From assembly GCF_036365525.1 (NCBI RefSeq), contig NC_090409.1, positions 39,194,437 to 39,258,436 on the forward strand: a stretch of 64,000 nucleotides of DNA, read 5' to 3'. Source of the DNA: Heterodontus francisci (lineage: Eukaryota). The notes below the pieces were generated by a model. That model was given only the letters and a program-made list of their open reading frames with translations. It was not told where the DNA came from and did no database searches. The position numbers were made by a program, and so were the translations under genes. Positions 19,193-62,348 of the stretch are shown piece by piece. Positions within the stretch are counted from its first letter, which is position 1. Each line of letters begins with the position of its first letter.

Positions 19193-19519
19193 CTGTTACA
19201 GAGAGATGGATTGAATCAGTTTGTTGCCATTGATAGTGCTCACCAATCCTCTTGTAAATCTGACACTGATACTCATTCTGGTCTGACTGCCTGAGGTCAG
19301 AGATCATTAGTGACCAGTTGCCTTGTTCCAGTTGATCTTGGAACAGGTTTGTTCTGTTTCTGAACTGTGGGTCTTGTTGTGTTAAATCATCGTTCCCATC
19401 GATAAACTTGTGTAAAATTTCACGATTGGATATCCACCAAATTACCTGTAATTCAGAGACTGGGACATTCCCTTTGTAGATACAGGGCAGCACAACCTGC
19501 TCCCCAAGGAACCCAGAAA
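19193..19519 (-). CDS. Gene B exon 5, second IgV domain (B7/BTN/CD276-like)
   Basis: VVLPC, VIWW, DPQFRNRTNLF..QLEQGNWSLMISDLRQSDQNEYQC; ttttccag acceptor and gtgaga donor; 327 nt, phase 1-1. Confidence 0.92.
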
Positions 19520-20181
19520 CTGGAAAAGATTGAAAGTATTTATCCACAGATATAACCTCCCTGCTGGTACATTCCATCCCAAGCTTCACATGGTTACACT
19601 GCGATGCTTGATTTACAAGAAGCACTGATCAGTAACTCACTGCTTTCATTTCTGTGGGAAGGTTAAAGGTCAGCAATGCAGTATTTATAATGACAAGTCT
19701 CCAGTACAGTGTACACTATTCTTGTCATTTTTAAAATGGAAACATCTCCGTGTCACACACTGAAACAAGTAAATATCTACATTTTTACAATTTAACGCTG
19801 GTTTTACAACTGGGTCAATATTACTTGCCGTTGACCTCAATTAGCATTGCACCAATCCCAGTTTCCCAACTGGAGGGTTCGGTTAAAATTGTACCGAATC
19901 TTTTCACAGACTCCCAGAAACACTGATGCTAGTGGGAAGCAGGAATCCTCAGAGTTCTGTATCAGAGGGACAGGAAGGCGAGTCTCAGAAACAGAAATAA
20001 CAATTGCAGGTAGTTTAAGGAGCAGTTACAGGTAACGGTGTCCCACATCACTCACTCTCACAGAATCATTCATTGGTAAAATATCACAGCATTTCAAACC
20101 TTCCAATATTACTACCTGTCTATCCAGCATGATCAAATGTAAAATCTAAAAACACATGCAGTAGTTTAGAAATAGATTTAC

Positions 20182-20220
20182 CTGGTACAGGTGTGTTCGG
20201 TACAGGTGTACGAGCTCGCT
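20182..20220 (-). CDS. Gene B exon 4, 39-nt Pro/Thr linker: (E)RARTPVPNTPVP
   Basis: ttttctttag acceptor and gtaaat donor; phase 1-1; conserved in gene C at 63061-63099. Confidence 0.75.
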
Positions 20221-21545
20221 CTAAAGAAAACATCATGTGTTTAGTATTGTGTGTGAAACAAACTGCAGAAATGTTCAAAGACTCTATCGGGCTGGAGGGA
20301 AACACATCCCGGGAGGAACGAGACTTGGGTCAAACTGATCAGGAACAGGGTCGGCAGAGTGAAAAATCCAACAGGATTGCATTCACTTTGAGGGATAGAA
20401 TGGAAGTTTTCCAGAGTTACCCCCAACAGGATCATTCCCAGCAGACTACACCCACCTGTGGAGAGAATTCCCACAGGATCCTGGGCGACTGGGATACACT
20501 TTCAAGGTAAGTGCACTGGGTCTTGTAAAGGCTGCCTGAGGGGTGCTATGGACCCCACCTCCTGCACCCCAACATCTGGAGACAGATGGAGCACGTTTCT
20601 GGAGAGTGAGAGCAGCTTGATAGCACCGTTAACTCCTTCCATCACCCAGTTTAGCAGCTCTGTCCTTCAGGGCTCAGCCAGCTCGGTCAGTGGTGGGATT
20701 ACAGAGTGACCCTTGGTGATGGAAAGTGAAGTCCCCACTCAGTACATTCTGTGTCCTTGTTACCCTCAGTGCTTCCTCCAAGTGGTGTTCAACATGGAGG
20801 AGAACTGATTCATCAGCTGAGGGAGGGCAGTAGGTGGGAATCAGCAGGAGGTCTCCAGGCCCATGTTTGACCTGAAGCTGTGAGATTTCATGGGGTTCAG
20901 AGTCAATGTTGAGGAGTCCTGGGGTCACTGACTCCAGACTGGATACCACTGTGTCCCCACCTCTGGTGGGTCTGTCCTGCAGGTGCGACAGAACATACCC
21001 AGGGATGGTGATAGAGGGGTCTGGGATGTCGGGTTGATTCTGTGATGATGACTCTGTCACACAGCTCTCCCAACATGGACACCAGTCTCCAGATGTCAGT
21101 GAGGGGAACATGGCAGTGTCAACTGGGCTGCATTTGCCTTTGCTGTGTCCTGATTCAATATGTGTGTCACAGCCAGTGGGCCGTTCAATTTTATTCCTGT
21201 TTTCCTTTCCAGTGGTTTGATACAAACTGATTGAAGTGGCCGAGCAGGTCAGAGGGCAGTTAAAAGTCAACCAGGTTAATGTGGGACTGGAGTCATATAG
21301 ACCAGACCGGGTAAGGACGGCAGGTTTCCTTCCCGAGAGGGACATTAATGAACTGAATTTAAATTCAGTTCAAAATAAATCTGGAAATTTTAAATTCTGA
21401 AAGTGCCATGGTGGGATTTGAACTCAAGTTCTCGGGATTATTAGACCAGGCCTCTGGATTACTAGTCTAGTAACATAACCACTGCACTACTGCACCCATA
21501 AAATCAGAGAGTAAATGCAGAATACCTGAAACAGAATCCTCTCAC

Positions 21546-21869
21546 CTGTTACAGAGAGATGGACAACTTGATGAAAGACTGGACTCGACCTCTGCAGAAT
21601 CTGACATCGATACTCATTCTGGTCTGACTGCCTGAGGTCAGAGATCATGAGTGACCAGTTGCCTTGTTCCAGTTGATCTTTGAACAGGTTTGTTCTGTTT
21701 CTGAACTGTGGGTCTTGTTGTGTTAAATCATCGTTCCCATCGACAAAATTATGTAAAACTCCGCGCTTGAATATCCACCAAATTACCTGTAACTCAGAGA
21801 CTGGGACATTCCCTTTGTAGGTACAGGGCAGCACAACCTGCTCCCCAAGGAACCCAGAAACTGAGTAAC
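21546..21869 (-). CDS. Gene B exon 3, first IgV domain (B7/BTN/CD276-like)
   Basis: Canonical Cys, Trp and DxxxYxC; splice sites intact; 324 nt, phase 1-1. Confidence 0.92.
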
Positions 21870-23004
21870 CTGGAAAAGATTGAAAGTATTTATCCACAGA
21901 TATAACCTCCCTGCTGGTACATTCCATCCCAAGCTCCACATGGTTACACTGCGATGCTTGATTTACAAGAAGCATTGATCAGTAACTCACTGCTTTCATT
22001 TCTGTGGGAAGGTTAAAGGTCAGGCATTAAGGGCCTTCAACTAAAACCAGCTTGTGCTGGATATTTGTATCCACAGAGCAGCTGGACAGCACTTTGAATC
22101 GTGTGTTTCCCATTGTACACATGCTGGGAGAACACATCAGGATATTGGTCACCCTGCCCACCTCCCCCCTTTGGGAGAACAATGACAGACTGGGGGGGGC
22201 ACAATGTGAGGTGGAGCTCAGGAGCAGAAAACTGACCCTGAAATGTAAAGACAGGAACGGGTGGGGGAGGGGGTACCCGAGGATGTGGAAAGGGCTTTGG
22301 ACAGGTTGGGGGGACAATGACGGACGAGTACACTGTGTAGGGGGTGAGGCAGCACCTGATGGTCTGAAAGGGGCCGAGGCAACGTGGATCCTCACCTCCC
22401 TCCACCACTAACCTGTCAGACCTTGCTCCTCACCCTAATACGGCCAGACTCTGCCCCCTCCCAGGACCCAAAACCCAACCCCCAGTCCTGATGACCCTAC
22501 TCCCCATGCTCAGAGGCAATTCCCAGTTCTAGTTGATCCAGGACTGTCCCAGACTCCTGATCCCAGTGCTCAGCACCCCATCCCAGTACCACTGGATCCC
22601 AGTCACCCATCCCAGTGTCACCGAGTGTTGCTCAGTGTCCAGATTCCACTGTTCACATCACAGGGGTTAATCTGAAGACATTAACTGCCTTCCTTTCAGG
22701 TCTCATGATCATTATGTGTAATGTGAACCGACTGTGTCCACTCCCTCAATGGGCCCACTCACAGTGAACACAGCACCTTAAAGTAAGATGAATTCCTGAT
22801 ATAATGAACACTATTCCCCAGTAATATACACATTACTGATTTCAGTCCCAGACACCCAGACAAATGTTCTTTCCAGGAGACAGCTAACTGCAGTCTGTAT
22901 AAATTCACAAGGTTAGCACCATCCAGGAAGATCAATCCTGATATAATCCATGTCACCAGCAGCCCCGAGCTCTGCTGAAATGTGAGAGCAGTCACAGCGC
23001 TTAC

Positions 23005-23068
23005 CTGAAACAGCAGCAACAGCATTTAGCAGCAGCAGCAGGAGGAGGAGTTTCTGTAAGTTGGGTCC
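23005..23068 (-). CDS. Gene B exon 2, signal peptide: GPNLQKLLLLLLLLNAVAAVS(G)
   Basis: ttttcttgttgcag acceptor and gtaagc donor; poly-Leu core with AVAAVS cleavage region; phase 0 to 1. Confidence 0.85.
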
Positions 23069-23142
23069 CTGCAACAAGAAAACACAGTTACCCCCCTTTA
23101 CCACAGTTTCTTGCTGCTCACGTCCATTTCTGAGCCGGGACA

Positions 23143-23600
23143 GGACACAGTCCATGGTCCCTCTCCCCATTACTGATCCCCCTCCCTCCTGGCTCTGAGA
23201 CACATTGAGACCGGGAGCAGCTCTGACACAGTCCATGGTCCCGCTCCCCATGACTGACCTCCCCCCCCTCCCTCCCAGCTCTCGAGACACATTGAGACCA
23301 GGAGCAGCCCTGACACAGTCCATGGTCCCGCTCCCCATTACTGACCCCCCTCCCTCTCTGCTCTGAGACACATTGAGACCAGGAGCAGCCCTGACACAGT
23401 CCATGGTCCCACTCCCCATTACTGACTCCCCTCCCTCCTCCCTCCCAGCTCTGAAACACATTGAGACCAGGAGCAGCCCTGACACAGTCCATGGTCCCTC
23501 TCCCCATTACTGACCCCCCTCCCTCCCAGCTCTGAGACACATTGAGACCAGGAGCAGCCCTGACACAGTCCATGGTCCCTCTCCCCATAACTGACCCCCG
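23143..23600. repeat. 81-bp VNTR in gene B intron 1 (about 5.5 units)
   Basis: Unit gtcagtaatggggagtgggaccatggactgtgtcagggctgctcccggtctcaatgtgtctcagagccgggagggaggggg. Confidence 0.92.
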
Positions 23601-23621
23601 GGTGTGAGACACTGACAATAC

Positions 23622-23642
23622 CTGCAGTGTTTTTCCATCCAT
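23622..23642 (-). CDS. Gene B exon 1 coding part: MDGKTLQ
   Basis: gcaATGG Kozak context; cag|gtattg donor; phase 0 matches exon 2; the same arrangement recurs in all leader cassettes. Confidence 0.7.
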
Positions 23643-24214
23643 TGCCCTGATCCTGGATTATCACAAAAACACTAAAAACCCTGCAACAGCTGTCCAGATG
23701 TAGCGGTAAACATTTGTGATGGAGACAAAAGCAAAATTGGGGGGTGGTGGGGGAAATCAGTCCCTGTCTCGATCCCTTATGGATCCCCATGGTCTGAAGT
23801 GAACAGTTTCCCGGGAGCCGACACTCGGATTGTTGTTTCACTCAAATCCCTTCCCGGGAAAAGCAGCTTTTAACACGGCTTTTCCTGACAGAGGCTGCAC
23901 CATTATTACACACTCCCCCCTCAGTGTGGGAATGGATCAGTCCAGACCATCCCTGAAACTGAAACATTGAGATCAGGTTTTTACAGAAATGTCTGAACAG
24001 GAAATGCTGTAAAACCTCAATTTGTAAAAACAGAAACAGAGTTTCACCCTTTCAGCTCCATTCTCCTCCTCCTGTGCTGTTTCTATTCTATTTTATTCTC
24101 TGACTGTTCCTCAGAACTGAATCCACATCTTCCAGGGTGTTTTCTTTCACTGAATTTGAGATCCAGCTGTGGTTCAGTTGGTAGCTCTCCAGGACTTGGG
24201 AACAAAAATCAAGC

Positions 24215-25040
24215 TTTATTTGAGGGTGGGTGCAGAGGGAGCCCCGCACTGCCGGAGGGCGCGGTGCAGAGGGAGCTGTCTGAGAAACGGGGAGGGGTGG
24301 GGGGGGGTGTTCTGGGTGGTCACTATCACATTGCTGTTTGTGGGATCTTGCTGTGCACACACTGACTGCTGCATTTCCTACATTACAACAGTCAATACAC
24401 TTCAGAAAAAGTATATCATTGGCTGGGAAGCATTTTCAGATGCCGGTGGTCGTGAAAAGCACGACAGAAATGCGAGACTTTTTTCTCCAGCCACATCAGC
24501 TCCATCAGTGAGAGCTCGAACCTCCCTCTCTGTTACATCTCCCAGACTTTACCCACTCAGCCCATCTGCTGCTGAAACCCTCATTCCTGCCTTTCTTACC
24601 TCCATACTCAATTATTCCAACCCTCTCTTGGCCTGAATGAGGCACCACATTGAGGATTGAACCTTACAAACGTTTACCTTCACTGTCAAAACTCACACAT
24701 GAAGAATGGATGTTTATGTGGGCTAACAGAAGGCTGCAGGCATCCACGTGTCAGACATGACTCAGTGGGTAACACTCTCACCTCAGTCAGAAGGCACTGC
24801 AGAACTGAGGGAATGCTGCACTGTCAGAGGTACTGTCTTTCAGGTGAGAGGTTAAACTGAGGGCCCTGTCTGCCCTCTGATGTGAAGGATCCCACAACCA
24901 CAAAGCCAGATCCTCCTGGTGTATTTGTCAATGTTTAGAATTTAACCAACACATAAAACAGTTTAGTGCAGACATTTATCACATTGTTATTTGTGGGAAC
25001 TTGCTGTGTGTAAATTGGTGAGAAAGACACTGTATAAATG
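24215..25040 (+). mobile_element. Deu-SINE-type (SacSINE1-like) fragments
   Basis: cattgctgtttgtgggatcttgctgtgc...tcctacattacaacag core shared with 12290-12480, 48170-48600 and 58995-59890. Family name is from recall. Confidence 0.55.
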
Positions 25041-26155
25041 GGAGAAACTGAAACTGGAATTTACCTTTCGGAGATACATTGAACTGTTGGTTGGGGCTCT
25101 CTCCTCATGTTTGACTGTCCCTGTGGCCTCAAGACACACGACTTTTAATGGAATCCATACTTCAGGATAAACTAGATCTTCCTCATTGTTGTGAGTGAGT
25201 TTACTTCAGTACCCAGGACACATTGATCACTCCATTTAGTTGCTGTTGTCCTTGTTTCAGTATCTGAGACTCATTGAATGTCCTCAAGGCTGTGGCCTTT
25301 TCACCTCTATTATAATCCCCACTTGTTATCTCTACCCCGGTGAGCAGAGGTGAGAATTCCAGTCTCTGAATACAGGGTTCACATCCAGCAGGAAACTGGT
25401 ACCCGATGGGAGCAGAGAGTCAACCCACCACCCATTGTATCTACCCAGACCCTCCTGGTAGGGCGTTGTTAGTCAGGATAAGGACCTGTCCATATAAAGA
25501 AAGAGTCTTCCTGATGGAGAACAATCTACTGGGTGTAAAAGCAGTGGAAATAATCAGCTGCCTCATTTTAAAATGATATATTAATTCCTTAGATGTGGGT
25601 GTCACTGGCAAGGCTGGTATTTATTGTCCATCCCGAGACGCCCCTTGTGAAGGTGTTGCTGGGTCTTCTTGAACCGTTTCAGTCCCGTGTGGTGAAGGTG
25701 CTCCCACGGTGCCGTTAGGGAGGGAGATCCAGGATTTTGATCCAGTGACGATGAAGGAACGGCCGATATTTCTCCAAGTTGGGACGGTGTGTCTGAGACT
25801 CGGAGGGGAACATGGAGGCGATGGTGTTCCCATGCTCCTGCTGCCCTTGTCCTTCTAGGGGAGGCTGGAGGTTGTGGGTTTGTGAGGTTTTATTGAAGAA
25901 TGTGGGACTGGGAACAGAAGAGAAAGAAGACTTGTTATCCTCCTCGTCCTGTCACCCTCCTCTAGGAAACCTCAATCCCAGACAATAAATTCATTCATTA
26001 AATAAAAAACACCTTTACAATAAATACAACTTCTTATTCCATTAAACATTTCCCCCAACAATTCCTTCTCGGAGCTTCCTTAATGTGATTTATCCTTCAC
26101 TAAAATAAACTTTCTGAAGTTGGCCATTCACTTTGACCTTTCACCTCCTCACACA
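24960..26155 (+). repeat. About 1.2-kb direct duplication, copy 2
   Basis: Matches 8320-9540, with an 18-bp deletion near 25110. Confidence 0.92.
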
Positions 26156-26179
26156 TATTTAAATTTCAACTGTTTTATC

Positions 26180-26650
26180 TTTGAACGGTTTCTGCTCGGG
26201 GCCGTGGCACCTGAGACAGCCGCCAATCAGGTGCCACAACGCCCTGTCACTCAGGATTCCCCGCCCAACCGACGGGCTGAGAAAACAGCCAGCCAATCAG
26301 GGAAAGGATGTGCGAGCTGCACTTCCGCCAATCGGTGCTTTCCGCAGATATGACGACACTGTAAAGCTGGATTGCTATTGGTCCCTGATGCCATTAGAAA
26401 CCGATAAACAAGGTTACGTGTTCAGCCGCTGATTGGCTGGTGGCTCGCCCAATGGCGGAGGATGAAGAAGGCGGGGGAAAATCAGCCGCCATTTTATGAC
26501 GCAGTCTGATTCACCGCCAAACTGTTAATTCCGGGAATTGTGAAACAAATGTTTGTTTGAGGTGATATTTCGGCGTCGATGTTATCCAGAGGAGATGCGT
26601 TTGCTCAGGATGCAGTGTGATCGGGAACACCGGGATTTTCAGGAGCAGCC
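26180..26650 (+). promoter_or_regulatory. CpG-rich promoter with multiple CCAAT boxes and a YY1-type motif, possible first exon ending gccg|gtaaca
   Basis: ccaatcag twice, ccaatcgg, gattgg, ccaatgg, gccgccatttt; inverted paralog at 46260-46700. Confidence 0.6.
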
Positions 26651-26780
26651 GGTAACAGCAGCTGAGGAACAAATGTCAGAAATGGATGTTTGTCTCCACA
26701 GAGCAGCTGGACATCGCTTTGAATCGTGTGTTTCCCATTGTAAACATATTGGTCACAATGTCCACCCCCAGTCTGTCATT

Positions 26781-29707: not shown

Positions 29708-29771
29708 CTGAAACAGCAGCAACAGCATTTAGCAGCAGCAGCAGGAGGAGGAGTTTCTGTAAATTGGGTCC
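29708..29771 (-). CDS. Orphan leader cassette 2, signal-peptide exon GPNLQKLLLLLLLLNAVAAVS (no own V exon)
   Basis: Intact acceptor, gtaaac donor and frame; homology to gene B intron 2 breaks near 29490. Confidence 0.55.
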
Positions 29772-29844
29772 CTGCAACAAGAAAACACAGTTACCCCCCC
29801 TTTACCACAGTTTCTTGCTGTTCATGTCCATTTCTGAGCCGGGA

Positions 29845-30780
29845 CAGGACACAGTCCATGGTCCCTCTCCCCATTACTGACCCCCCTCCCTCCCGGCTCT
29901 GAGACACATTGAGACCGAGAGCAGCCCTGACACAGTCCATGGTCCCTCTCCCCATTACTGACCCTCCTCCCTCCCGGCTCTGAGACACATTGAGACCGGG
30001 AGCAGCCCTGACACAGTCCATGGTCCCTCTCCCCATTACTGACCCCCCTCCCTCCCGGCTCTGAGACACATTGAGACCGGGAGCAGCCCTGACACAGTCC
30101 ATGGTCCCTCTCCCCATTACTGACCCCCCTCCCTCCCGGCTCTGAGACACATTGAGACCGGGAGCAGCCCTGACACAGTCCATGGTCCCACTCCCCATTA
30201 CTGACCCCCCTCCCTCCCGGCTCTGAGACACATTGAGACCGGGAGCAGCCCTGACACAGTCCATGGTCCCACTCCCCATTACTGACCCCCCTCCCTCCCG
30301 GCTCTGAGACACATTGAGACCGGGAGCAGCCCTGACACAGTCCATGGTCCCACTCCCCATTACTGACCCCCCTCCCTCCCGGCTCTGAGACACATTGAGA
30401 CCGGGAGCAGCCCTGACACAGTCCATGGTCCCTCTCCCCATTACTGACCCCCCTCCCTCCCGGCTCTGAGACACATTGAGACCGGGAGCAGCCCTGACAC
30501 AGTCCATGGTCCCACTCCCCATTACTGACCCCCCTCCCTCCCGGCTCTGAGACACATTGAGACCGGGAGCAGCCCTGACACAGTCCATGGTCCCTCTCCC
30601 CATTACTGACCCCCCTCCCTCCCGGCTCTGAGACACATTGAGACCGGGAGCAGCCCTGACACAGTCCATGGTCCCTCTCCCCATTACTGACCCCCCTCCC
30701 TCCCGGCTCTGAGACACATTGAGACCGGGAGCAGCCCTGACACAGTCCATGGTCCCTCTCCCCATTACTGACCCTCCCCC
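29845..30780. repeat. 81-bp VNTR, about 11.5 homogeneous units
   Basis: 27-aa periodic ORFs at 29791-30765. Confidence 0.95.
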
Positions 30781-30802
30781 GGGTGTGAGACACTGACAAT
30801 AC

Positions 30803-32830: not shown

Positions 32831-32834
32831 ACAG

Positions 32835-35219: not shown

Positions 35220-35915
35220 ATGGATGGAAAAACACTGCAGGTACTGTCAGTGTCTCACACCCGGGGGGTCAGTAATGGGGAGCGGGACCATGGACTGTGT
35301 CAGGGCTGCTCCCGGTCTCAATGTGTCTCAGAGCCGGGAGGGAGGGGGGTCAGTAATGGGGAGTGGGACCATGGACTGCGTCAGGGCTGCTCCCGGTCTC
35401 AATGTGTCTCAGAGCCGGGAGGGAGGGGGGTCAGTAATGGGGAGTGGGACCATGGACTGTGTCAGGGCTGCTCCCGGTCTCAATGTGTCTCAGAGCCGGG
35501 AGGGAGGGGGGTCAGTAATGGGGAGAGGGACCATGGACTGTGTCAGGGCTGCTCCCGGTCTCAATGTGTCTCAGAGCCGGGAGGGAGGGGGGTCAGTAAT
35601 GGGGAGTGGGACCATGGACTGCGTCAGGGCTGCTCCCGGTCTCAATGTGTCTCAGAGCCGGGAGGGAGGGGGGTCAGTAATGGGGAGTGGGACCATGGAC
35701 TGTGTCAGGGCTGCTCCCGGTCTCAATGTGTCTCAGAGCCGGGAGGGAGGGGGGTCAGTAATGGGGAGTGGGACCATGGACTGTGTCAGGGCTGCTCCCG
35801 GTCTCAATGTGTCTCAGAGCCGGGAGGGAGGGGAGTCAGTAATGGGGAGTGGGACCATGGACTGTGTCAGGGCTGCTCCCGGTCTCAATGTGTTTCAGAG
35901 CCGGGAGGGAGGGGT
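35220..35915 (+). pseudogene. Orphan leader cassette 3: exon 1 MDGKTLQ (35220-35240) plus about 8 units of the 81-bp VNTR, truncated by CR1
   Basis: Same exon 1 and donor as genes B and C; no exon 2 follows. Confidence 0.7.
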
Positions 35916-46250: not shown

Positions 46251-46259
46251 ACCGTTTAA

Positions 46260-47417: not shown

Positions 47418-47646
47418 CTGAAACAGCAGCAACAGCATTTAGCAGCAGCAGCAGGAGGAGGAGTTTCTGGAAGTTGGGTCCCTGCAACAAGAAAACACAG
47501 TTACCCCCCTTTACCACCGTTTCTTGCTGCTCATGTCCATTACTGAGCCGGGACAGGACACAGTCCATGGTCCCTCTCCCCATTACTGACCCTCCCGCCC
47601 CCCGGGTGTGAGACACTGACAATACCTGCAGCGCATTTCCAACCAT
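47418..47646 (-). CDS. Orphan leader cassette 5: exon 1 MVGNALQ (47626-47646) and exon 2 GPNFQKLLLLLLLLNAVAAVS (47418-47481)
   Basis: Intact splice sites and frame; only half a VNTR unit in intron 1; no adjacent V exon. Confidence 0.55.
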
Positions 47647-47714
47647 TTTCTGACAGAAGCTTCATCATTATCACAAACCCTCCTCCCTTCTCAGTGTAGG
47701 AATGGTCCAGTCAT

Positions 47715-48695: not shown

Positions 48696-51600
48696 CTGAA
48701 CCCCTTTAATACAGGAACCAGACTCTGGGTCAATCCGACTGAACCCCTTTAATACAGGAACCAGACTCTGGGTCAATCCGACTGAACCCCTTTAATACGG
48801 GAACCGGACTCTGGGTCGATCCGACTGAACCCCTTTAATACAGGAACCAGACTATGGGTCGATCCGACTGAACCCCTTTAATACAGGAACCGGACTCTGG
48901 GTCGATCCGACTGAACCCCTTTAATACAGGAACCGGACTCTGGGTCAATCCGACTGAACCCCTTTAATACGGGAACCGGACTCTGGGTCGACCAGGCTGA
49001 ACCCCTTTAATACAGGAACCGGACTCTGGGTCGATCCGACTGAACCCCTTTAATACAGGAACCAGACTCTGGGTCAATCTGACTGAACCCCTTGAATACA
49101 GGAACCAGACTCTGGGTCGATCCGACTGAACCCCTTTAATACGGGAACCGGACTCTGGGTCGATCCGACTGAACCCCTTTAATACAGGAACCAGACTCTG
49201 GGTCGATCCGACTGAACCCCTTTAATACAGGAACCGGACTCTGGGTCGATCCGACTGAACCCCTTTAATACAGGAACCGGACTCTGGGTCAATCCGACTG
49301 AACCCCTTTAATACAGGAACCGGACTCTGGGTCAATCCGATTGAACCCCTTTAATACAGGAACCGGACTCTGGGTCAATCCGACTGAACCCCTTTAATAC
49401 AGGAACCAGACTCTGGGTCAATCCGACTGAACCCCTTTAATACAGGAACCGGACTCTGGGTCAATCCGACTGAACCCCTTTAATACAGGAACCGGACTCT
49501 GGGTCGATCCGACTGAACCCCTTTAATACAGGAACCAGACTCTGGGTCGATCCGACTGAACCCCTTTAATACAGGAACCAGACTCTGGGTCAATCCGACT
49601 GAACCCCTTTAATACAGGAACCGGACTCTGGGTCAATCCGACTGAACCCCTTTAATACAGGAACCAGACTCTGGGTCAATCCGACTGAACCCCTTTAATA
49701 CAGGAACCAGACTCTGGGTCGATCCGACTGAACCCCTTTAATACAGGAACCGGACTCTGGGTCGATCCGACTGAACCCCTTTAATACAGGAACCGGACTC
49801 TGGGTCGATCCGACTGAACCCCTTTAATACAGGAACCAGACTCTGGGTCAATCCGACTGAACCCCTTTAATACAGGAACCGGACTCTGGGTCGATCCGAC
49901 TGAACCCCTTTAATACAGGAACCGGACTCTGGGTCGATCCGACTGAACCCCTTTAATACGGGAACCAGACTCTGGGTCAATCCGACTGAACCCCTTTAAT
50001 ACAGGAACCGGACTCTGGGTCGATCCGACTGAACCCCTTTAATACGGGAACCGGACTCTGGGTCGATCCGACTGAACCCCTTTAATACAGGAACCAGACT
50101 CTGGGTCGATCCGACTGAACCCCTTTAATACGGGAACCAGACTCTGGGTCAATCCGACTGAACCCCTTTAATACAGGAACCGGACTCTGGGTCGATCCGA
50201 CTGAATCCCTTTAATACGGGAACCGGACTCTGGGTCGATCCGACTGAACCCCTTTAATACAGGAACCGGACTCTGGGTCAATCCGACTGAACCCCTTTAA
50301 TACAGGAACCAGACTCTGGGTCGATCCGACTGAACCCCTTTAATACAGGAACCGGACTCTGGGTCGATCCGACTGAACCCCTTTAATACAGGAACCAGAC
50401 GCTGGGTCGATCCGACTGAACCCCTTTAATACAGGAACCGGACTCTGGGTCGATCCGACTGAACCCCTTTAATACAGGAACCGGACTCTGGGTCGATCCG
50501 ACTGAACCCCTTTAATACAGGAACCGGACTCTGGGTCGATCCGACTGAACCTCTTTAATACAGGAACCGGACTCTGGGTCGATCCGACTGAACCCCTTTA
50601 ATACGGGAACCGGACTCTGGGTCGATCGGACTGAACCCCTTTAATACAGGAACCGGACTCTGGGTCGATCCGACTGAACCCCTTTAATACAGGAACCGGA
50701 CTCTGGGTCGATCCGACTGAACCCCTTTAATACGGGAACCGGACTCTGGGTCGATCCGACTGAACCCCTTTAATACAGGAACCAGACTCTGGGTCGATCC
50801 GACTGAACCCCTTTAATACGGGAACCGGACTCTGCGTCGATCCGACTGAACCCCTTTAATACAGGAACCGGACTCTGGGTCGATTCGACTGAACCCCTTT
50901 AATACAGGAACCAGACTCTGCGGTCGCTCCGACTGAACCCCTTTAATACGGGAACCGGACTCTGGGTCGATCCGACTGAACCCCTTTAATACAGGAACCG
51001 GACTCTGGGTCGATCCGACTGAACCCCTTTAATACAGGAACCGGACTCTGGGTCGATCCGACTGAACCCCTTTAATACAGGAACCGGACTCTGGGTCGAT
51101 CCGACTGAACCCCTTTAATACGGGAACCGGACTCTGGGTCGATCCGACTGAACCCCTTTAATACAGGAACCAGACTCTGGGTCGATCCGACTGAACCCCT
51201 TTAATACAGGAACCGGACTCTGGGTCGATCCGACTGAACCCCTTTAATACAGGAACCGGACTCTGGGTCAATCCGACTGAACCCCTTTAATACAGGAACC
51301 GGACTCTGGGTCAATCCGACTGAACCCCTTTAATACAGGAACCGGACTCTGGGTCAATCCGACTGAACCCCTTTAATACAGGAACCAGACTCTGGGTCAA
51401 TCCGACTGAACCCCTTTAATACAGGAACCGGACTCTGGGTCAATCCGACTGAACCCCTTTAATACAGGAACCGGACTCTGGGTCGATCCGACTGAACCCC
51501 TTTAATACAGGAACCAGACTCTGGGTCGATCCGACTGAACCCCTTTAATACAGGAACCAGACTCTGGGTCGATCCGACTGAACCCCTTTAATACAGGAAC

Positions 51601-54600
51601 CGGACTCTGGGTCAATCCGACTGAACCCCTTTAATACAGGAACCAGACTCTGGGTCAATCCGACTGAACCCCTTTAATACAGGAACCAGACTCTGGGTCG
51701 ATCCGACTGAACCCCTTTAATACAGGAACCGGACTCTGGGTCGATCCGACTGAACCCCTTTAATACAGGAACCGGACTCTGGGTCGATCCGACTGAACCC
51801 CTTTAATACAGGAACCAGACTCTGGCTCAATCCGACTGAACCCCTTTAATACAGGAACCGGACTCTGGGTCGATCCGACTGAACCCCTTTAATACAGGAA
51901 CCGGACTCTGGGTCGATCCGACTGAACCCCTTTAATACGGGAACCAGACTCTGGGTCAATCCGACTGAACCCCTTTAATACAGGAACCGGACTCTGGGTC
52001 GATCCGACTGAACCCCTTTAATACGGGAACCGGACTCTGGGTCGATCCGACTGAACCCCTTTAATACAGGAACCAGACTCTGGGTCGATCCGACTGAACC
52101 CCTTTAATACGGGAACCAGACTCTGGGTCAATCCGACTGAACCCCTTTAATACAGGAACCGGACTCTGGGTCGATCCGACTGAATCCCTTTAATACGGGA
52201 ACCGGACTCTGGGTCGATCCGACTGAACCCCTTTAATACAGGAACCGGACTCTGGGTCAATCCGACTGAACCCCTTTAATACAGGAACCAGACTCTGGGT
52301 CGATCCGACTGAACCCCTTTAATACAGGAACCGGACTCTGGGTCGATCCGACTGAACCCCTTTAATACAGGAACCAGACGCTGGGTCGATCCGACTGAAC
52401 CCCTTTAATACAGGAACCGGACTCTGGGTCGATCCGACTGAACCCCTTTAATACAGGAACCGGACACTGGGTCGATCCGACTGAACCCCTTTAATACAGG
52501 AACCGGACTCTGGGTCGATCCGACTGAACCTCTTTAATACAGGAACCGGACTCTGGGTCGATCCGACTGAACCCCTTTAATACGGGAACCGGACTCTGGG
52601 TCGATCGGACTGAACCCCTTTAATACAGGAACCGGACTCTGGGTCGATCCGACTGAACCCCTTTAATACAGGAACCGGACTCTGGGTCGATCCGACTGAA
52701 CCCCTTTAATACGGGAACCGGACTCTGGGTCGATCCGACTGAACCCCTTTAATACAGGAACCAGACTCTGGGTCGATCCGACTGAACCCCTTTAATACGG
52801 GAACCGGACTCTGCGTCGATCCGACTGAACCCCTTTAATACAGGAACCGGACTCTGGGTCGATTCGACTGAACCCCTTTAATACAGGAACCAGACTCTGC
52901 GGTCGCTCTGACTGAACCCCTTTAATACGGGAACCGGACTCTGGGTCGATCCGACTGAACCCCTTTAATACAGGAACCGGACTCTGGGTCGATCCGACTG
53001 AACCCCTTTAATACAGGAACCGGACTCTGGGTCGATCCGACTGAACCCCTTTAATACAGGAACCGGACTCTGGGTCGATCCGACTGAACCCCTTTAATAC
53101 AGGAACCGGACTCTGGGTCGATGCGACTGAACCCCTTTAATACAGGAACCGGACTCTGTGTCAATCAGACTGAACCCCTTTAATACAGGAACCAGACTCT
53201 GCGGTTGCTCCGACTGAACCCCTTTAATACAGGAACCAGACTCTGTGTCAATCAGACTGAACCCCTTTAATACAGGAACCAGACTCTGCGGTCGCTCCGA
53301 CTGAACCCCTTTAATACGGGAACCGGACTCTGGGTCGATCCGAGTGAATCCCTTTAATACAGGAACCGGACTCTGGGTCGCTCCGACTGAACCCCTTTAA
53401 TACAGGAACCGGACTCTGGGTCGATCCGACTGAACCCCTTTAATACAGGAACCGGACTCTGTGTCAATCAGACTGAACCCCTTTAATACAGGAACCAGAC
53501 TCTGCGGTCGCTCCGACTGAACCCCTTTAATACAGGAACCGGACTCTGGGTCGATCCGACTGAACCCCTTTAATACAGGAACCAGACTCTGGGTCAATCA
53601 GACTGAACCCCTATAATACAGGAACCGGACTCCAGGTCGATCCGGCTGAACCCCTTTAATACAGGAACCGGACTCTGGGTCGATCCGACTGAACCCCTTT
53701 AATACTGGAACTGGACTCTGGGTCAATCCGACTGAACCCCTTTAATACGGGAACCGGACACTGGGTCGATCCGACTGAATCCCTTTAATACAGGAACCGG
53801 ACTCTGGGTCGATCCGACTGAACCCCTTTAATACGGGAACCGGACTCTGGGTCGATCCGACTGAACCCCTTTAATACAGGAACCGGACTCTGTGTCAATC
53901 AGACTGAACCCCTTTAATACAGGAACCAGACTCTGCGGTCGCTCCGACTGAACCCCTTTAATACGGGAACCGGACTCTGGGTCGATCCGAGTGAATCCCT
54001 TTAATACAGGAACCGGACTCTGGGTCGCTCCGACTGAACCCCTTTAATACAGGAACCGGACTCTGGGTCGATCCGACTGAACCCCTTTAATACAGGAACC
54101 GGACTCTGTGTCAATCAGACTGAACCCCTTTAATACAGGAACCAGACTCTGCGGTCGCTCCGACTGAACCCCTTTAATACAGGAACCGGACTCTGGGTCG
54201 ATCCGACTGAACCCCTTTAATACAGGAACCAGACTCTGGGTCAATCAGACTGAACCCCTTTAATACAGGAACCGGACTCCAGGTCGATCCGGCTGAACCC
54301 CTTTAATACAGGAACCGGACTCTGGGTCGATCCGACTGAACCCCTTTAATACAGGAACCGGACTCTGGGTCGATCCGACTGAACCCCTTTAATACGGGAA
54401 CCGGACTCTGGGTCGATCCGACTGAACCCCTTTAATACAGGAACCAGACTCTGGGTCAATCAGACTGAACCCCTTTAATACAGGAACCAGACTCTGCGGT
54501 CGCTCCGACTGAATCCCTTTAATACAGGAACCGGACTCTGGGTCGATCCGACTGAACCCCTTTAATACGGGAACCGGACTCTGGGTCGCTCCGACTGAAA

Positions 54601-55530
54601 CCCTTTAATACAGGAACAGGACTCTGGGTCGATCTGACTGAACCCCTTTAATACAGGAACCAGACTCTGGGTCGATCCGACAGAACCCCTTTAATACAGG
54701 AACCGGACTCTGGGTCGATCCGACTGAACCCCTTTAATACAGGAACCGGACTCTGGGTCGATCCGACTGAACCCCTTTAATGCAGGAACCGGACTCTGGG
54801 TCGATCCGACTGAACCCCTTTAATACGGGAACCGGACTCTGGGTCGATCCGACTGAACCCCTTTAATACAGGAACCGGACTCTGGGTCGATCCGACTGAA
54901 CCCCTTGAATACAGGAACCGGACTCTGGGTCGATCAGGCTGAACCCCTTTAATACAGGAACCGGACTCTGGGTCGATCCGACTGAACCCCTTTAATACAG
55001 GAACAGGACTCTGGGTCGATCCGACTGAACCCCTTTAATACAGGAACAGGACTCTGGGTCGATCTGACTGAACCCCTTTAATACAGGAACCAGACTCTTG
55101 GTCGATCCGACTGAACCCCTTTAATACAGGAACCAGACTCTGGGTCGATCCGACTGAACCCCTTTAATACAGGAACCGGACTCTGGGTCGATCCGACTGA
55201 ACCCCTTTAATACAGGAACCGGACTCTGGGTCGATCCGACTGAACCCCTTTAATACAGGAACCAGACTCTGGGTCGATCCGACTGAACCCCTTTAATACG
55301 GGAACCCGACTCTGGGTCGATCTGACTGAACCCCTTTAATACAGGAACCGGACTCTGGGTCGATCCGACTGAACCCCTTTAATACAGGAACCGGACTCTG
55401 GGTCGATCCGACTGAACCCCTTTAATACAGGAACCGGACTCTGGGTCGATCCGACTGAACCCCTTTAATACAGGAACCTTACTCGGTGTCGATCTGACTG
55501 AACCCCTTTAATACAGGAACCAGACTCTGG
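48696..55530. repeat. 43-bp satellite array, about 159 units (gactgaacccctttaatacaggaaccggactctgggtcgatcc)
   Basis: Uninterrupted tandem array with internal block duplications. Confidence 0.98.
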
Positions 55531-55609
55531 GTGGTATTGACTGGATGGCTGTGTGGAGAGCTGACTTGGACTGGATGGGCTGAATGGCCTCCTGTGCCTT
55601 CTATGACTC

Positions 55610-57550
55610 TCTCTAACATTCTTCCTTCAATGAAGACTGCAGGGGGGCATGCCAGCAGCAGGTATATCTCAAAATGCGGTGTCAACCCAGTGAAGCTACA
55701 ATCTAGGACCACTTGCATGTGAAACAGCATAAGCAGCGTGCGATAGACAGAGCTAAGTGATCCCAGAACCAATGGATCAGATGTAAGCTCTGCAGTCCTG
55801 CCACATCCAGTGGTGAATGGCGGTGGACCATTAAACAACAAACTGAAGGAGGTGGTTCCACAAATATCCCCATCCTCAATGATGGGGAAGTCCAACACAT
55901 CAGTGCAAAAGATAAGGCTGAAGCATTTGCAACAATCTTCAGCCAGAAGCGCTGAGTTGATGATCCATCTCAGCCTCCTCCTGAAGTCCCCAGCATCACA
56001 GATGCCAGTCTTCAGCCAATTTGTTTCACTCTGCGTGATATCAAGAAACGACTGAAGGCCCTGGATACTGCAAAGGCTATGGGCCCTGACAATATTCCGG
56101 CAATAGTACTGAAGACCTGTGCTCCAGAACTTGCCACACCCCTAGCCAAGCTTTCCAGTACAGCTACAACACTGTCATCTGCCTGACAGTGTGGAAACTT
56201 GCCCAGGTATGTCCTGTACATAGAAAGCAGGACAAGTCCAACCCGGCCATTTACTGCCCCATCAGTCTACTCTCAATCATCAGTAAAATGATGGAAGGTA
56301 TCATTGACAGTGTTATCAAGCAGCATTTGTTTAGCAATAACCTGCTCAGTGATGTTCAGTTTGGGTTCCATCAGGGCCACTCAGCTCCTGACCTCATTAC
56401 AGCCTTGGCTCAAACATGGACAAAAGAGCTGAACTCCAGAGGTGAGGTGAGAATGACTGCCCTTGATATCAAGGCAGCATTTGACCGAGTATGGCATCAA
56501 GGAGCCCTGGAAAAATTGGAGTGATTGAGAATCGGGGAAAAATTCTTCGCTGGTTGGAGTCGTATCTAACGCAAAGGAAGATGGTTGTGGTTGTTGGAGG
56601 TCAATCATCTCAGCTCCAGGACATCACTGCAGGAGTTCCTCAGGGTAGTGTCCTAGGCCCAACCATCTTCAGTTACTTCATCAATGACCTTCTTTCAATC
56701 ATAAGGTCAGAAATGGGGATATTCACTGATGATTGCACAATATTTAGCACAATTCGCGACTCCTCAGATACTGAAGCAGTCCGTGTAGAAATGCTGCAAG
56801 ACCTGGACCATATCCAGGCTTGGGCTGATAAGTGGCAACTAACATTTGTGCCACACAAGTGCCAGGCAATGACCATCTCCATTAAGAGAGAATCCAACCC
56901 TCTTCCCTTGACATTCAATGGCATTACGATCGCTGAATCCGCCGCTATCAACATCCTGGGTGTTACCATTGACCAGAACTGGAGTAACCATATAAATACC
57001 GTGGCTGCAAGAGCAAGTCAGAGGCTGGGAATCCTGCAGTGAGTAACTCACCTCCTGACTCGCCAAAGCCTGTCCACCATCTACAAGGCACAAGTCAGGA
57101 GTGTGACGGAATACTCTCCACTTGCCTGGTGCAGCTCCAACAACACTCAAGAAGCTCAACACCATCCAGAACAAAGCACTTGATTGGCACCCCATCTACA
57201 AACATTCACTCCCTCCACCACCGACGCACAGTGGCAGCAGTGTGTACCATCTACAAGATGCACTGCAGCAACTCACCAAGGCTCCTTAGACAGCACCTTC
57301 CAAACCCATGACCTCTACCAACTAGAAGGACAAGGGCAGCTGATGCATGGGAACACCACCACCTGCAAGTTCCCCTCCAAGTCACACACCATCCTGACTT
57401 GGAACTGTATCGCCGTTCCTTCACTGCCATTAGGTCAAAATCCTGGAACTCCCTTCCTAACAGCACTGTGGGTGTACCTACCCCACATGGACTGCAGCGG
57501 TTCAAGAAGGCAGCTCACCACCACCTTCTCAAGGGCAATTAGGGATGGGC
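55610..57550 (+). mobile_element. CR1-superfamily LINE, degenerate ORF2 RT and 3' end
   Basis: YCPISLLSIISK, QFGF, ALDIKAAFDRVWH, GVPQGSVLGP, FTDD. Confidence 0.92.
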
Positions 57551-57689
57551 ATTATGGAGCCAAGACAGGTGGATGGAGTTCAGATACAGATAGCCATGAT
57601 CACGTTGAATTTCAGGACAGGCTCGAGGGGCTGAATGGCCTCCTCCTGTTCCAATATTCCAATATATTATCAATGGAGATAGTTCTATC

Positions 57690-58500
57690 TCTCCTATAAA
57701 GTCCTTTAATCATCGTAAACATCTCAATTAGATCTCTCTTAATCTTCATTATTCAAGCCTCTTCTGTGCAACCTCTCCACATAATTTAACCCTTTTCATC
57801 CCATTACCATTCTGGTAAATCTGTGCTGCACCCCCTCCAAGGCCAATATATCCTTCCTGAGGGGCGGTGCCCAGAACTGAACACAGTGACTCCAGATGGG
57901 GCCAGACCAGTGATTTATATAATATAACTTCTACCTCTTTATATTCCAGCCCTCTCGAGATAGAGGCCAACATTCCATTCACCTTTTAAATTATTTCTTG
58001 TAACTGTCCACCCAATATATAATGTTGTAAAACAGCCTGTAGCATTTCCTAGACAGTGAGGTGGAGGGAGAAGAGTCAGGAGTGTTAACTGAAAACAAGA
58101 TCAGAGAGATACATTGGGAAGAAGCCTTCGAAGGATGGTTGAGGTGAAGCCAGGCAGGGAAAGGGGGTCAGGCAGAAAGTCTCAGAGTGTGGGGTCAATA
58201 TGGTTTAAAGAGGAGTTTACATAGGATATACGACACAAACACAGGCCATTCGGCCCAACCAGTCCATGCTAGTGTTTATGCTCCACCCAAGCCTCCTCCC
58301 GTCTTTCCTTATCTAAATCTATCATTGTAACCCTCTGTTCCCTTACTCCTCATGTGTTTATCCAGCTTCCCCTTAAATGAATCAATACTATTCACCTCAA
58401 CCACTCCCTGTGGGAGCGAGTTCCACATTCTCACCACTCTCTGGGGAAAGAAGTTTCTCCTGAATTCCCGACTGGATTTCTGGGTGACTATATAGGATTA
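57690..58500 (-). mobile_element. CR1 3' fragments
   Basis: RGLEYKEVEVILYKSLVWPHLE; CR1-type tail at 58230-58490. Confidence 0.7.
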
Positions 58501-58994
58501 CATAGGAATTATGGCACAAGGAGGGAAAGGAAGGAGGTGCATGTGGAGGAGGAGAGAACTGGAAGATGAAAGGCCTTGACTCAAACACAGGACTAAAGGA
58601 GATTCCAAGTGGAAGAGTGAGAGGGGAAACACAATGAGGACGAGGAATTGGAAATCAATGGGTTGGTACATCAGGGCCAATGATGATTGGTGAGGACATG
58701 GGTGATAAGGAACAGGGCAGACAGCAGTTACTGAAGGTTTGTGTGAGTTGTGATGGATAGAGGGGATCAATCAGGAGGCCAGTAAGGACAGTATTGGAGT
58801 GGGAACATAATAAAGGCTGGGATAAGATTGACTTTGGAAAACAAACAGTTCCAAAATAATGAACAGGCTTGGAGTTGTTTGCACTTGTATTTTCAGTTTG
58901 TTGTAACCGACCTCTGTCTGCCCAGTTTTTACTTTGGAGATGATCCAGTGTCTCATTCCTGTAAACCTTGAGGTCAGTTAGTGTTTAATTGTTG

Positions 58995-59890
58995 GTGAAT
59001 AAAAAGAACGTGCATTTCTATAGCGCCTTTCAGGATGGCACAAAGTGCTTCACAGCCAATGAAATACTTTTCTTGAAATGTGGTCACTGTTGTAATGTAG
59101 GAAACGAGGCAGCCAATTCCTGCACAGCAAGATCCCACAAACAGCAATGTGAAAATGACCCAGATTGTTTGTTTTAGTGATGTCGGTTGAGGGATAAATA
59201 TTGTCCCCAGGACACCGGGGAGAACTCCCCCCCACCGCTCTTCTTCCAAATAGTGGCCGTGGGATCTTTTACACCCACCTGAGAGGGCAGACGGGGGCCT
59301 CGGTTTAATGTCTCATCTGAAAGATGGCACCTCCGGCAGTGCAGCACTCCCTCAGTACTGACCGTCCAACAGTGCAGCACCCCCTCTGTACAGACCCTCC
59401 GACAGTGCAGCACTCCCTCAGTACAGACCCTCCGACAGTGCAGCACTCTCTCAGTACTGACCCTCCGACAGTGCAGCACCCCCTCAGTACTGACCCTCTG
59501 ACAGTGCAGCACCCCCTCAGTCCTGACTCTCCGACAGTGCAGCACCCCCTCAGTACTGACCCTCCGACAGTGCAGCACCCCCTCAGTACAGACCCTCCAA
59601 CAGTGCAGCACTCTCTCAGTACTGACCCTCCGACAGTGCAGCACCCCCTCAGTCCTGACTCTCCGACAGTGCGGCACTCCCTGCGACAGTGCAGCACTCC
59701 CTCAGTACTGACCCTCCGACAGTGCAGCACTCCCTCAGTATTGACCCTCCGACAGTGCGGGGCTCCCTCTGCACCGACCCCCCGGCAGTGCGGGGCTCCC
59801 TCTGCACCGACCCCCCGACAGTGCGGGTCTCCCTCTGCACCGACCCCTCCGACAGTGCGGGGCTCCCTCTGCACCCACCCTCAAATAAAG
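58995..59890 (-). mobile_element. Deu-SINE-type element with an internal 33-bp tandem expansion (about 59335-59870)
   Basis: Unit ccctccgacagtgcagcactccctcagtactga; the paralog at 24215-24480 lacks the expansion. Confidence 0.75.
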
Positions 59891-60460
59891 CTTGATTTTT
59901 GTGCCCAAGTCCTGGAGAGCTACCAACTGAACCACAGCTGGATCTCAAATTCAGTGAAAGAAAACACCCTGGAAGATGTGGATTCAGTTCTGAGGAACAG
60001 TCAGAGAATAAAATAGAATAGAAACAGCACAGGGGGAGGAGAATGGAGCTGAAAGGGTTAAACTCTGTTTCTGTTTTGACAAATTGAGGTTTTGCAGCAT
60101 TTCCTGTTCAGACATTTCTGTAAAAACCTGATCTCAATGTTTCAGTTTCAGGGATGGTCTGGACTGATCCATTCCCACACTGAGGGGGGAGTGTGTAATA
60201 ATGGTGCAGCCTCTGTCAGGAAAAGCCGTGTTAAAAGCTGCTTTTCCCGGGAAGGGATTTGAGTGAAACAACAATCCGAGTGTCGGCCACCGGGAAACTG
60301 TTCACTTCAGACCATGGGGATCCATAAGGGATCGAGACAGGGACTGATTTCCCCCACCACCCCACATTTTGCTTTTGTCTCCATCACAACTGTTTTCCGC
60401 TACATCTGAACAGCTGTTTCAGGGTTTTTAGTGTTTTTGTGATAATCCAGGATCGGGGCA

Positions 60461-60481
60461 ATGGATGGGAAAACACTGCAG
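60461..60481 (+). CDS. Gene C exon 1: MDGKTLQ
   Basis: ATG with cag|gtactg donor; paralog of gene B exon 1. Confidence 0.7.
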
Positions 60482-60826
60482 GTACTGTCAGTGTCTCACA
60501 CCCGGGGAGAGGGAGGGAGATGTGGGGGAAAGTTTCCCTCCCCAAGGATTCGCCTCTTTATTGTTTATCGCCCTCGAAACAGGAGGAGAATTTGTTCCAT
60601 TTCGGGGCTTTGTGTTTCTGACCCTGAGGCAGGGTCTCGTTTATAAAAGGAGAAATGTCAGACATTGGAGATGGAGCGAGAGAAACTGTGTTTAAACTGA
60701 AAATAAACACCTAGCTGTTAATCTTCACCCGGGGGTGGGGAACACAGTGACACAGCCCGGTTCAGAAATGGACATGAGCAGCAAGAAACTGTGGTAAAGG
60801 GGGGTAACTGTGTTTTCTTGTTGCAG

Positions 60827-60881
60827 GGACCCAACTTCCAGAAACTCCTCCTCCTGCTGCTGCTGCTAAATGCTGTTGCAG
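60827..60881 (+). CDS. Gene C exon 2, signal peptide: GPNFQKLLLLLLLLNAVA(G)
   Basis: ttgcag acceptor and gtaagc donor; in-frame 9-nt deletion relative to gene B. Confidence 0.85.
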
Positions 60882-62015
60882 GTAAGCACTGTGACTGCTC
60901 TCACATTTCAGCAGAGCTCGGGGCTGCTGGTGATATGGATTATATCAGGATTGATCTTCCTGGATGGTGCTAACCTTGTGAATTTATACAGACTGCAGTT
61001 AGCTATCTCCTGGAAAGAACATTTGTCTGGGTGTCTGGGACTGAAATCAGTAATGTGTATATTACTGGGGAATAGTCTTCATTATATCAGGAATTCATCT
61101 TGCTTTAAGGTGCTGTGTTCACTGTGAGTGGGCCCATTGAGGGAGTGGACACAGTCGGTTCACATTACACATAATGATCATGAGACCTGAAAGGAAGGCA
61201 GTTAATGTCTTCAGATTAACCCCTGTGATGTGAACAGTGGAATCTGGACACTGAGCAACACTCGGTGACACTGGGATGGGTGACTGGGGTCCAGTGGTAC
61301 TGGGATGGGGTCCTGAGCACTGGGATCAGGAGTCTGGGACAGTCCTGGATCAAATAGAACTGGGAATTGCCTCTGAGCATGGGGAGTAGGGTCATCAGGA
61401 CTGGGGGTTGTGTTTTGGGTCCTGGGAGGGGGCAGAGTCTGGCCGTATTGGGGTGAGGAGCAAGGTCTGACAGGTTAGTGGTGGAGGGAGATGAGGATCC
61501 ACATTACCTCGGCCCCTTTCAGACCATCAGGTGCAGCCTCACCCCCTACACAGTGTACTCGTCCGTCATTGTCCCCCCAACCTGTCCAAAGCCCTTTCCA
61601 CATCCTCGGGTACCCCCTCCCCCACCCGTTCCTGTCTTTACATTTCAGGGTCAGTTTTCTGCTCCTGAGCTCCACCTCACATTGTGCACCCCCAGTCTGT
61701 CATTGTTCTCCCAAAGTGGGGAGGTGGGCAGGGTGACCAATATCCTGATGTGTTCTCCCAGCATGTGTACAATGGGAAACACACGATTCAAAGTGCTGTC
61801 CAGCTGCTCTGTGGATACAAATATCCAGCACAAGCTGGTTTTAGTTGAAGGCCCTTAATGCCTGACCTTTAACCTTCCCACAGAAATGAAAGCAGTGAGT
61901 TACTGATCAGTGCTTCTTGTAAATCAAGCATCGCAGTGTAACCATGTGGAGCTTGGGATGGAATGTACCAGCAGGGAGGTTATATCTGTGGATAAATACT
62001 TTCAATCTTTTCCAG

Positions 62016-62348
62016 GTTACCCGTCTGTCCCAGTTTCTGGGTTCCTTGGGGAGCAGGTTGTGCTGCCCTGTATCTACAAAGGGAATGTCCCAGTCTCTGA
62101 ATTACAGGTAATTTGGTGGATATTCAATCGTGGAATTTTACACAAATTTATCGATGGGAACGATGATTTAACACAACAAGACCCATGGTTCAGAAACAGA
62201 ACAAACCTGTTCAAAGATCAACTGGAACAAGACAACTGGTCAATTATGATCTCTGACCTCAGGCAGTCAGACCAGAATGAGTATCAGTGTGAGATTCAAC
62301 AGAGGGAGACTCCAGTCTTTCATCAAGATATTCATCTCTTTGTAACAA
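62016..62348 (+). CDS. Gene C exon 3, IgV domain (B7/BTN/CD276-like)
   Basis: 333 nt, phase 1-1, canonical residues; donor aa|gtgaga is weaker than in the paralogs. Confidence 0.9.

Follow-up and report, generated by a model that had tools for sequence, protein, structure and literature searches.

Reassortment of C-C' and F-G cassettes among tandem IgV genes of the horn shark

The evolutionary mode of the gene family described here is already known from other systems. The chicken BG genes, a tandem array with hybrid genes, each coding for a single immunoglobulin V-type (IgV) domain and a membrane span, exchange short V-exon cassettes, as shown by a pairwise homoplasy index (PHI) test (PMC5043582). 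The N domains of primate CEACAM proteins, likewise IgV, have come repeatedly under selection where bacterial adhesins bind them, and their paralogues have converted one another time and again, according to PMC8860441, and a divergence peak amid homogenised sequence is given as the signature of selection under conversion in the accessible part of PMC3924837. The present subject is a family of IgV genes in the horn shark, Heterodontus francisci, three V exons of which lie in the window, the whole 64,000-nucleotide stretch that was analysed (assembly GCF_036365525.1, contig NC_090409.1, positions 39,194,437 to 39,258,436, forward strand). Across this family, amino-acid change is clustered in two patches of the V domain (C-C' and F-G), cassettes from these patches occur in many combinations, and silent divergence is raised in the patches as well. 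A literature search, with most subscription journals and supplements lying outside it, found no published description of the family, and there is none in the available portions of PMC12151841 and PMC12841164.

Gene anatomy and fold

The horn shark cluster consists of 19 intact genes with 22 V exons at 39.17–39.65 Mb of the contig (C39), about 480 kb, in a gene map built over 664 kb. A search of the genome gave 62 V matches in total, and beyond the 22 close ones identity falls to 36% or less. The exon order is leader, V, an optional Pro/Thr stalk exon, membrane exon and tail exon. Sixteen genes have one V exon and three have two, in every case a V1 of short F-G type followed by a V2 of long type. 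The V1 exons of these three are identical, which shows a recent duplication and nothing further. All 22 V exons are open reading frames, and 18 are distinct. The window exons at 21.5 and 19.2 kb do not belong to two paralogous genes; they are V1 and V2 of a single gene, g03 (protein P0001). The exon at 62 kb is the sole V exon of the adjacent gene, g04. Among the joints listed for contigs from three presumed-RNA runs, all of one sample, the V1-stalk joint occurs in two runs and the stalk-V2 joint in one; exon coverage in these contigs is far above intron coverage. A weak V1-stalk joint also occurs in a DNA-labelled run.

The V exon is germline-complete, with strands F and G in one exon, a GT donor at its end and splicing to the stalk. 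This differs from a V segment of a rearranging antigen receptor, in which the exon stops short of strand G and V(D)J joining completes it; no search for recombination signals was made. Tails are short, about 25–65 residues in a single exon. Neither ITIM (immunoreceptor tyrosine-based inhibitory motif) nor ITAM (the activation motif) was found in the 10 horn shark proteins, the one tail tyrosine (P0017) lying outside the ITIM consensus, and none of the membrane spans listed contains Lys or Arg. A paired activating or inhibitory receptor of the KIR, LILR, CD300 or NITR type was rejected on these grounds, for the proteins examined. No IgC domain was found in the annotated proteins, in the exon map or in a C-set scan of P0001, P0020 and P0024, and the three proteins scanned contain no Pfam family for a B30.2 domain or heptad repeats. 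Both matches to class II alpha, the sole query from the major histocompatibility complex (MHC), lie on another contig, C29. The length of the membrane span varies, partly through a 21-nucleotide (nt) internal repeat that adds cysteines (window 1622-1673). The tail is variable among sharks except for its last 20 or so amino acids, which are conserved and include two paired leucines and an acidic residue (tail exon 14906-15080 and its relatives); we take this conserved end to be a possible sorting signal.

The B7-type fold proposed in the earlier note is supported. All three window V exons score above the Pfam V-set cut-off, and the closest solved relatives by sequence are B7-H3, B7-H4, PD-L1 and MOG, with 28–30% identity to the B7 ligands. 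Models of the two F-G length types (predicted local distance difference test scores 94.8 and 94.7) match B7-H4 with Z 17.2 (root mean square deviation 1.7 over 104 residues), PD-L1 with Z 17.0 and MOG with Z 16.6, which are tied within 1. Because the IgC domain of B7 proteins was not found, and neither the tail nor the MHC linkage of the butyrophilin/BG group, the family is filed as B7/MOG-like and not as a member of either; the RefSeq names 'CD276 homolog' and 'MOG-like' are automatic labels.

In the short-type model strand C spans residues 24-30, C' 34-40, F 82-90 and G 93-104, and in the long type F spans 82-92 and G 95-108, so that the length difference amounts to two more residues on each of strands F and G. 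The models place the 4-residue gap at the hairpin tip, the aligner in strand G. The patches had been described as loops, which holds for the 3-residue turn at 31-33 that precedes C', but they consist mostly of strands C', F and G. Their location on the front (GFCC') sheet is supported by the models, with side-chain orientation read from the in-out alternation along each strand, taking the Trp and Cys of the core as reference. Aligned to PD-L1, the variable positions 38, 40, 48, 85, 87 and 89 correspond to Gln66, Val68, Val76, Arg113, Met115 and Ser117 of the front face, in a residue numbering that we presume to be correct. In PD-L1 the surface bound by PD-1 is the flat front, with Ile54, Tyr56, Gln66 and Arg113 among its residues (PMC5341541), and by analogy the front face of the shark family is the predicted binding site.

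Clustered change and cassette reassortment

The six C-C' and F-G peptides quoted in the earlier note are all present at their sites in the three window exons, as is the in-frame length change in F-G, where the 19.2-kb exon carries 12 extra nt (109 versus 105 codons). Across the 18 distinct V exons, 40 of the 70 minimum nonsynonymous steps fall in the 28 of 105 codons that make up the two patches; this count leaves out, by masking, eight long-type F-G codons whose alignment is ambiguous. Even with free choice of the two best windows, only 2 of 2000 permutations reach this clustering, so that change is indeed concentrated and not evenly spread. To call the frameworks almost invariant was an overstatement, since the other 30 steps lie outside the patches, particularly at codons 14-24, 47-52, 71 and 82-83.

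The same patches vary in other sharks. A protein search returned 59 matches, all labelled shark. Ten are from the horn shark, two of which match the query at 100%, and the remainder, at 60–76%, come from 11 further shark species. In 49 distinct V domains from those 11 species, a set with at least four domains left unparsed, entropy averages 1.80 at patch positions and 0.64 elsewhere (p 2e-9), and the profile correlates with that of the horn shark (rho 0.50). Outward positions of strands C, C' and F are variable there too, while seven of eight back-sheet positions have entropy below 0.5. A profile search outside sharks, limited to proteins of 518–2000 residues, returned 1 protein and is uninformative on distribution.

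That patches are reassorted between copies was missed by the earlier note. A PHI-type test gives p 0.0002 at four neighbourhood sizes, and one third of informative site pairs are incompatible, the fraction being 0.16 within 15 nt and 0.30–0.39 farther apart. The 22 exons represent 16 combinations of the types at codons 31-35, 38-41 and F-G. For example, four distinct cassettes at 31-35 are combined with the F-G type EIQQRETP, RN at codons 32-33 (a four-base change) is found on two F-G types, and HNFV at 37-40, together with a silent CAT marker, on three. Membrane exons likewise reassort relative to V types. Four segment trees improve the log likelihood by 178 under model M0, with more parameters and no formal test. 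Judged from the sequences, the process is probably gene conversion, and a double crossover would give the same pattern.

A tree of 65 framework columns places all 18 domains of the horn shark together (93/88, not starred), which is consistent with either lineage-specific expansion or concerted evolution. In the F-G part the long type is 61–70% identical to other species and 22–35% to the short types of the horn shark (gaps counted). The short type also occurs in one catshark domain (P0010; grouping 86/68), no more than a hint that it may be older than the split of the shark orders, since horn shark monophyly is not rejected (approximately unbiased test, p 0.40, 28 columns) and the aligner and the models disagree on where the F-G gap lies.

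Silent divergence is raised in the patches along with replacement. The synonymous (dS) tree length is 0.99 for codons 31-52 and 0.69 for 82-105, compared to 0.23 and 0.21 in the framework, and the exon patches also exceed the flanking introns (0.054 and 0.219). Silent third-position differences along the four segments are 2.8%, 17.9% (codons 31-52), 2.7% and 6.0%. By comparison, the mean difference in alignable DNA outside the V exons is 4.2% among 10 representatives of the types, with the whole leader-V intron mostly at 0–5%, and only 6 of 997 overlapping non-coding windows attain the level of codons 31-52. At codons for invariant residues, silent variants occur in 7 of 17 within the patches and 5 of 41 outside (p 0.02).

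The near-identity claimed for the flanking introns holds upstream (nucleotide diversity, pi, 0.009 over 150 nt) and less so downstream (pi 0.043 over 112 columns, with insertions farther on). The last ~190 nt of the upstream intron give 22 matches, all within the cluster on C39, which rules out a dispersed repeat; the three V2 copies share only the final 152 nt. At the same site in all 22 copies (window 21991-22001, minus strand) a strong acceptor-like sequence is followed 11 nt on by a donor-like GTGAGT. Such an element might control splicing or might be a micro-exon that shifts the frame; no joint of such a micro-exon is among those listed in the presumed-RNA and DNA contigs.

Probable selection under conversion and its alternatives

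The best explanation, which we consider probable but well short of certain, is that conversion homogenises introns and framework while selection preserves and reshuffles the divergent front-face cassettes. Under such a scheme the proteins, themselves devoid of signalling motifs, would serve as ligands or decoys at the cell surface, and duplication together with conversion would keep the gene copies alike. Affinity for a varying partner, perhaps an attachment protein of microbes or viruses or a family of lymphocyte receptors, would differ from one C-C'/F-G combination to the next. Selection would remove conversions by which a cassette is lost and retain short ones that produce new combinations. 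The case for selection, which we infer to be the cause of the divergence peak, rests on a peak of silent and replacement change over the front face amid homogenised flanks. Silent divergence would not rise through relaxed constraint alone, but it does under selection against homogenising conversion (PMC3924837). B7-type ligands are usually few and conserved, and some 19 shark copies that vary and reassort one face suggest a fast-changing partner.

A less likely alternative, compatible with this explanation, is positive selection of the classical kind, in which point mutations at contact residues were fixed once the genes had recently duplicated, with the homoplasy due to recurrent substitution. 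Tests of the nonsynonymous to synonymous rate ratio (dN/dS, or omega), with codon models coded by the author of the analysis and 17 rows after masking, bear on it directly. On a single tree, M2a is favoured over M1a (twice the log-likelihood difference 23.2, p 9e-6), with omega 3.0 at about 30% of sites. Under simulated recombination on four trees without positive selection, 28 of 45 data sets are falsely significant on one tree, so the one-tree significance is largely due to recombination; just 1 of 45 attains the real value of 29.1. With the four segment trees the site tests give p 0.12 (M1a versus M2a), 0.11 and 0.039 (M8a versus M8), with omega 1.7, and are conservative as short segments overfit their trees. 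In simple counts, the three window exons have pN below pS in both patches for all three pairs, and for the 18 exons pN/pS is 1.22 (C-C'), 0.81 (F-G) and 0.46 (rest), with no difference in the ratio of nonsynonymous to synonymous changes between patches and rest (Fisher p 0.39). The rarity of the real statistic among the simulations, the M8 result and an omega of 1.58 on the front face speak for point-mutation selection. Against it stand silent sites that are raised alongside replacement sites, multi-nucleotide cassettes with silent markers that recur on different backgrounds, the PHI-type result (p 0.0002) and the 28 falsely significant simulations. Point mutation under selection probably originated the cassettes. 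The suggestion of diversifying selection in the earlier note is supported as some form of selection for diversity, carried by the divergence peak, while its point-mutation version with dN/dS above 1 is not clearly borne out by segment omegas of 0.67–1.02 and segment-tree p values of 0.039–0.12. The family is a clear case of a standard dN/dS test overstating selection owing to gene conversion.

Several results weigh against selection under conversion. The significance of the site models is lost under segment trees, and the four segments taken singly have omegas (0.91, 0.82, 0.67 and 1.02) that do not differ from 1. The residual signal on the front face is modest, because omega at the 19 positions equivalent to PD-1 contacts is 1.58 versus 0.66 elsewhere (p 2e-4) but gives p 0.055 against 1, and the face set was drawn after the variable sites were known. 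The middle of the face equivalent to that of PD-L1, positions 25, 27 and 29 (Ile54, Tyr56 and Glu58), does not vary among the horn shark copies, though it does in other sharks. The silent peak is clear at C'-C'' and weak at F-G (6.0% overall, 8.1% for short types), and segment borders were set after the data were seen. Some silent variants touch CpG sites, so a local mutation rate may contribute, and the 12-nt indel could block conversion near F-G without selection. A test of longest identical runs gives p<0.01 for 4 of 153 pairs, hardly beyond chance, and does not show long recent tracts; because it found so little, the tracts would be short or old. In two other organisms the upstream intron is 91–99% alike and the exon pieces 84–91% (contigs filtered at 80%), and as the intron is the more conserved it may itself be constrained and a poor neutral yardstick. 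Finally, the sample is one haploid assembly, without alleles.

Relaxed constraint with neutral, patchy conversion is slightly less likely again than point mutation alone. Ig domains in general accept substitutions in loops and at exposed positions, and here these would drift while divergence or an indel locally suppresses conversion, in agreement with omega near 1 in both patches and with an M1a that is not rejected on segment trees. Against this, none of the 22 exons has lost its reading frame, and there are spliced forms; the exposed back sheet is nearly invariant in other sharks, where the same patches vary in 11 species, and the C-C' silent peak, in the top 1% of non-coding windows, stands where there is no indel. 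Recognition within the family, by homo- or heterophilic adhesion or cis-dimers via the GFCC' face, fits a tail and span without signalling motif, the constant short-long pairing in two-V genes and a fixed centre with a variable rim as at a conserved dimer interface, but the identity of the three V1 exons reflects recent duplication only, and we regard this alternative as very improbable.

A bolder extension of selection under conversion is doubtful: that IgC-less B7-like ligands across sharks form a germline combinatorial C-C'/F-G repertoire, with some cassettes predating the shark-order split, in an arms race with variable lymphocyte receptors or a pathogen attachment protein. If true, the oldest lineage to possess adaptive immunity would have a system of diversification on the ligand side.

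The window, its surroundings and described systems

Table 1. Features of the IgV gene family in the 64-kb window (positions counted from its first letter)
Feature	Position	Strand	Basis
g02 membrane and tail exons (V exon just ahead of window start)	1578..3010	+	tblastn, borders approximate
g03 cytoplasmic tail exon, with stop codon, without tyrosine	14906..15080	-	
g03 membrane-span exon, span without charged residue	16242..16347	-	
g03 V2 exon, long F-G type, 109 codons	19193..19519	-	Pfam V-set, model
g03 V2 F-G cassette	19206-19268	-	
g03 V2 C-C' cassette	19398-19430	-	
g03 39-nt Pro/Thr-rich stalk exon between V1 and V2	20182..20220	-	spliced joints
g03 V1 exon, short F-G type, 105-codon core	21546..21869	-	Pfam V-set, model
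g03 V1 F-G cassette, codons 85-101	21559..21609	-	
g03 V1 C-C' cassette, codons 31-41	21739..21771	-	
Conserved intron stretch upstream of g03 V1 acceptor	21870..22060	-	97-100% identical across 22 copies; cluster-only
g03 signal-peptide exon	23005..23068	-	tblastn with P0001; AG/GT borders
g04 signal-peptide exon (single-V gene)	60827..60881	+	
g04 V exon, short F-G type	62015..62348	+	
g04 V C-C' cassette	62123-62155	+	
g04 V F-G cassette	62285-62335	+	
g04 stalk exon (membrane and tail exons past window end)	63061..63099	+	

The cluster contains a three-gene unit (minus, plus, minus) repeated four times. A 4-kb inverted repeat (window 1-4023 and 13906-17914, 92%) is made up of the 3' ends of two family genes that converge. 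Extra signal-peptide exons that lack a V exon lie at window positions 29709 and 47419 (regions 29709-30774 and 47419-47481), and orphan leaders also occur upstream of the other two-V genes. An 81-nt tandem repeat adjoins leader copies at 23144 and 29848 (regions 23144-23599 and 29709-30774), with a third array at 35263-35914, and a 43-nt satellite of 159 copies (94% matches) occupies 48696-55532. The flanking open reading frames listed around the cluster are mostly repeats. An IIGP/IRG interferon-inducible GTPase frame lies 70 kb past the cluster (L083:1017-1721, C39 39.72 Mb, E 8.5e-40). Further B7-like V exons are present on C39 at 38.58 Mb (L024, best match B7-H3) and 41.72 Mb (L026), and a separate group of weaker V matches, including L023 and L030, is found at 5.5–12.1 Mb of C29, the contig that carries MHC class II. 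In the basking shark, model P0050 fuses a SET protein of PRDM7/9-like type with one of the family; the fusion is probably an annotation artefact and a hint as to which gene lies next door.

Like the chicken BG genes, the shark family consists of tandem genes for an IgV domain and a membrane span that swap V-exon cassettes. The BG cassettes lie in loops equivalent to complementarity-determining regions 1 and 2, atop a disulphide-linked dimer (PMC5043582, available text), whereas those of the shark occupy C-C' and F-G of the front sheet. The BG genes adjoin the MHC, while the shark cluster is on C39 and MHC class II alpha on C29. BG tails are long heptad repeats, in contrast to the one short tail exon of the shark family. 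With the butyrophilin/BG/MOG group as a whole it shares a single IgV domain before the membrane span, in 16 of 19 genes. B7-H3, B7-H4 and PD-L1 are the best sequence and fold matches of the shark V domain, but the family lacks IgC and has 19 near-identical genes where the B7 genes are single-copy. The CEACAMs belong to another Ig subfamily and have known ligands; they include paired members with ITIM and ITAM-like motifs, neither of which occurs in the shark proteins examined. Red and green opsins likewise have introns made alike by conversion and a peak of divergence near the sites under selection, but are two genes of fixed function (PMC3924837), compared to about 19 shark genes with combinatorial reassortment. 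The natural combinations of cassettes are a ready-made mutant panel for a partner search, and the shark family would add a cartilaginous-fish parallel to the chicken BG genes and the CEACAMs.

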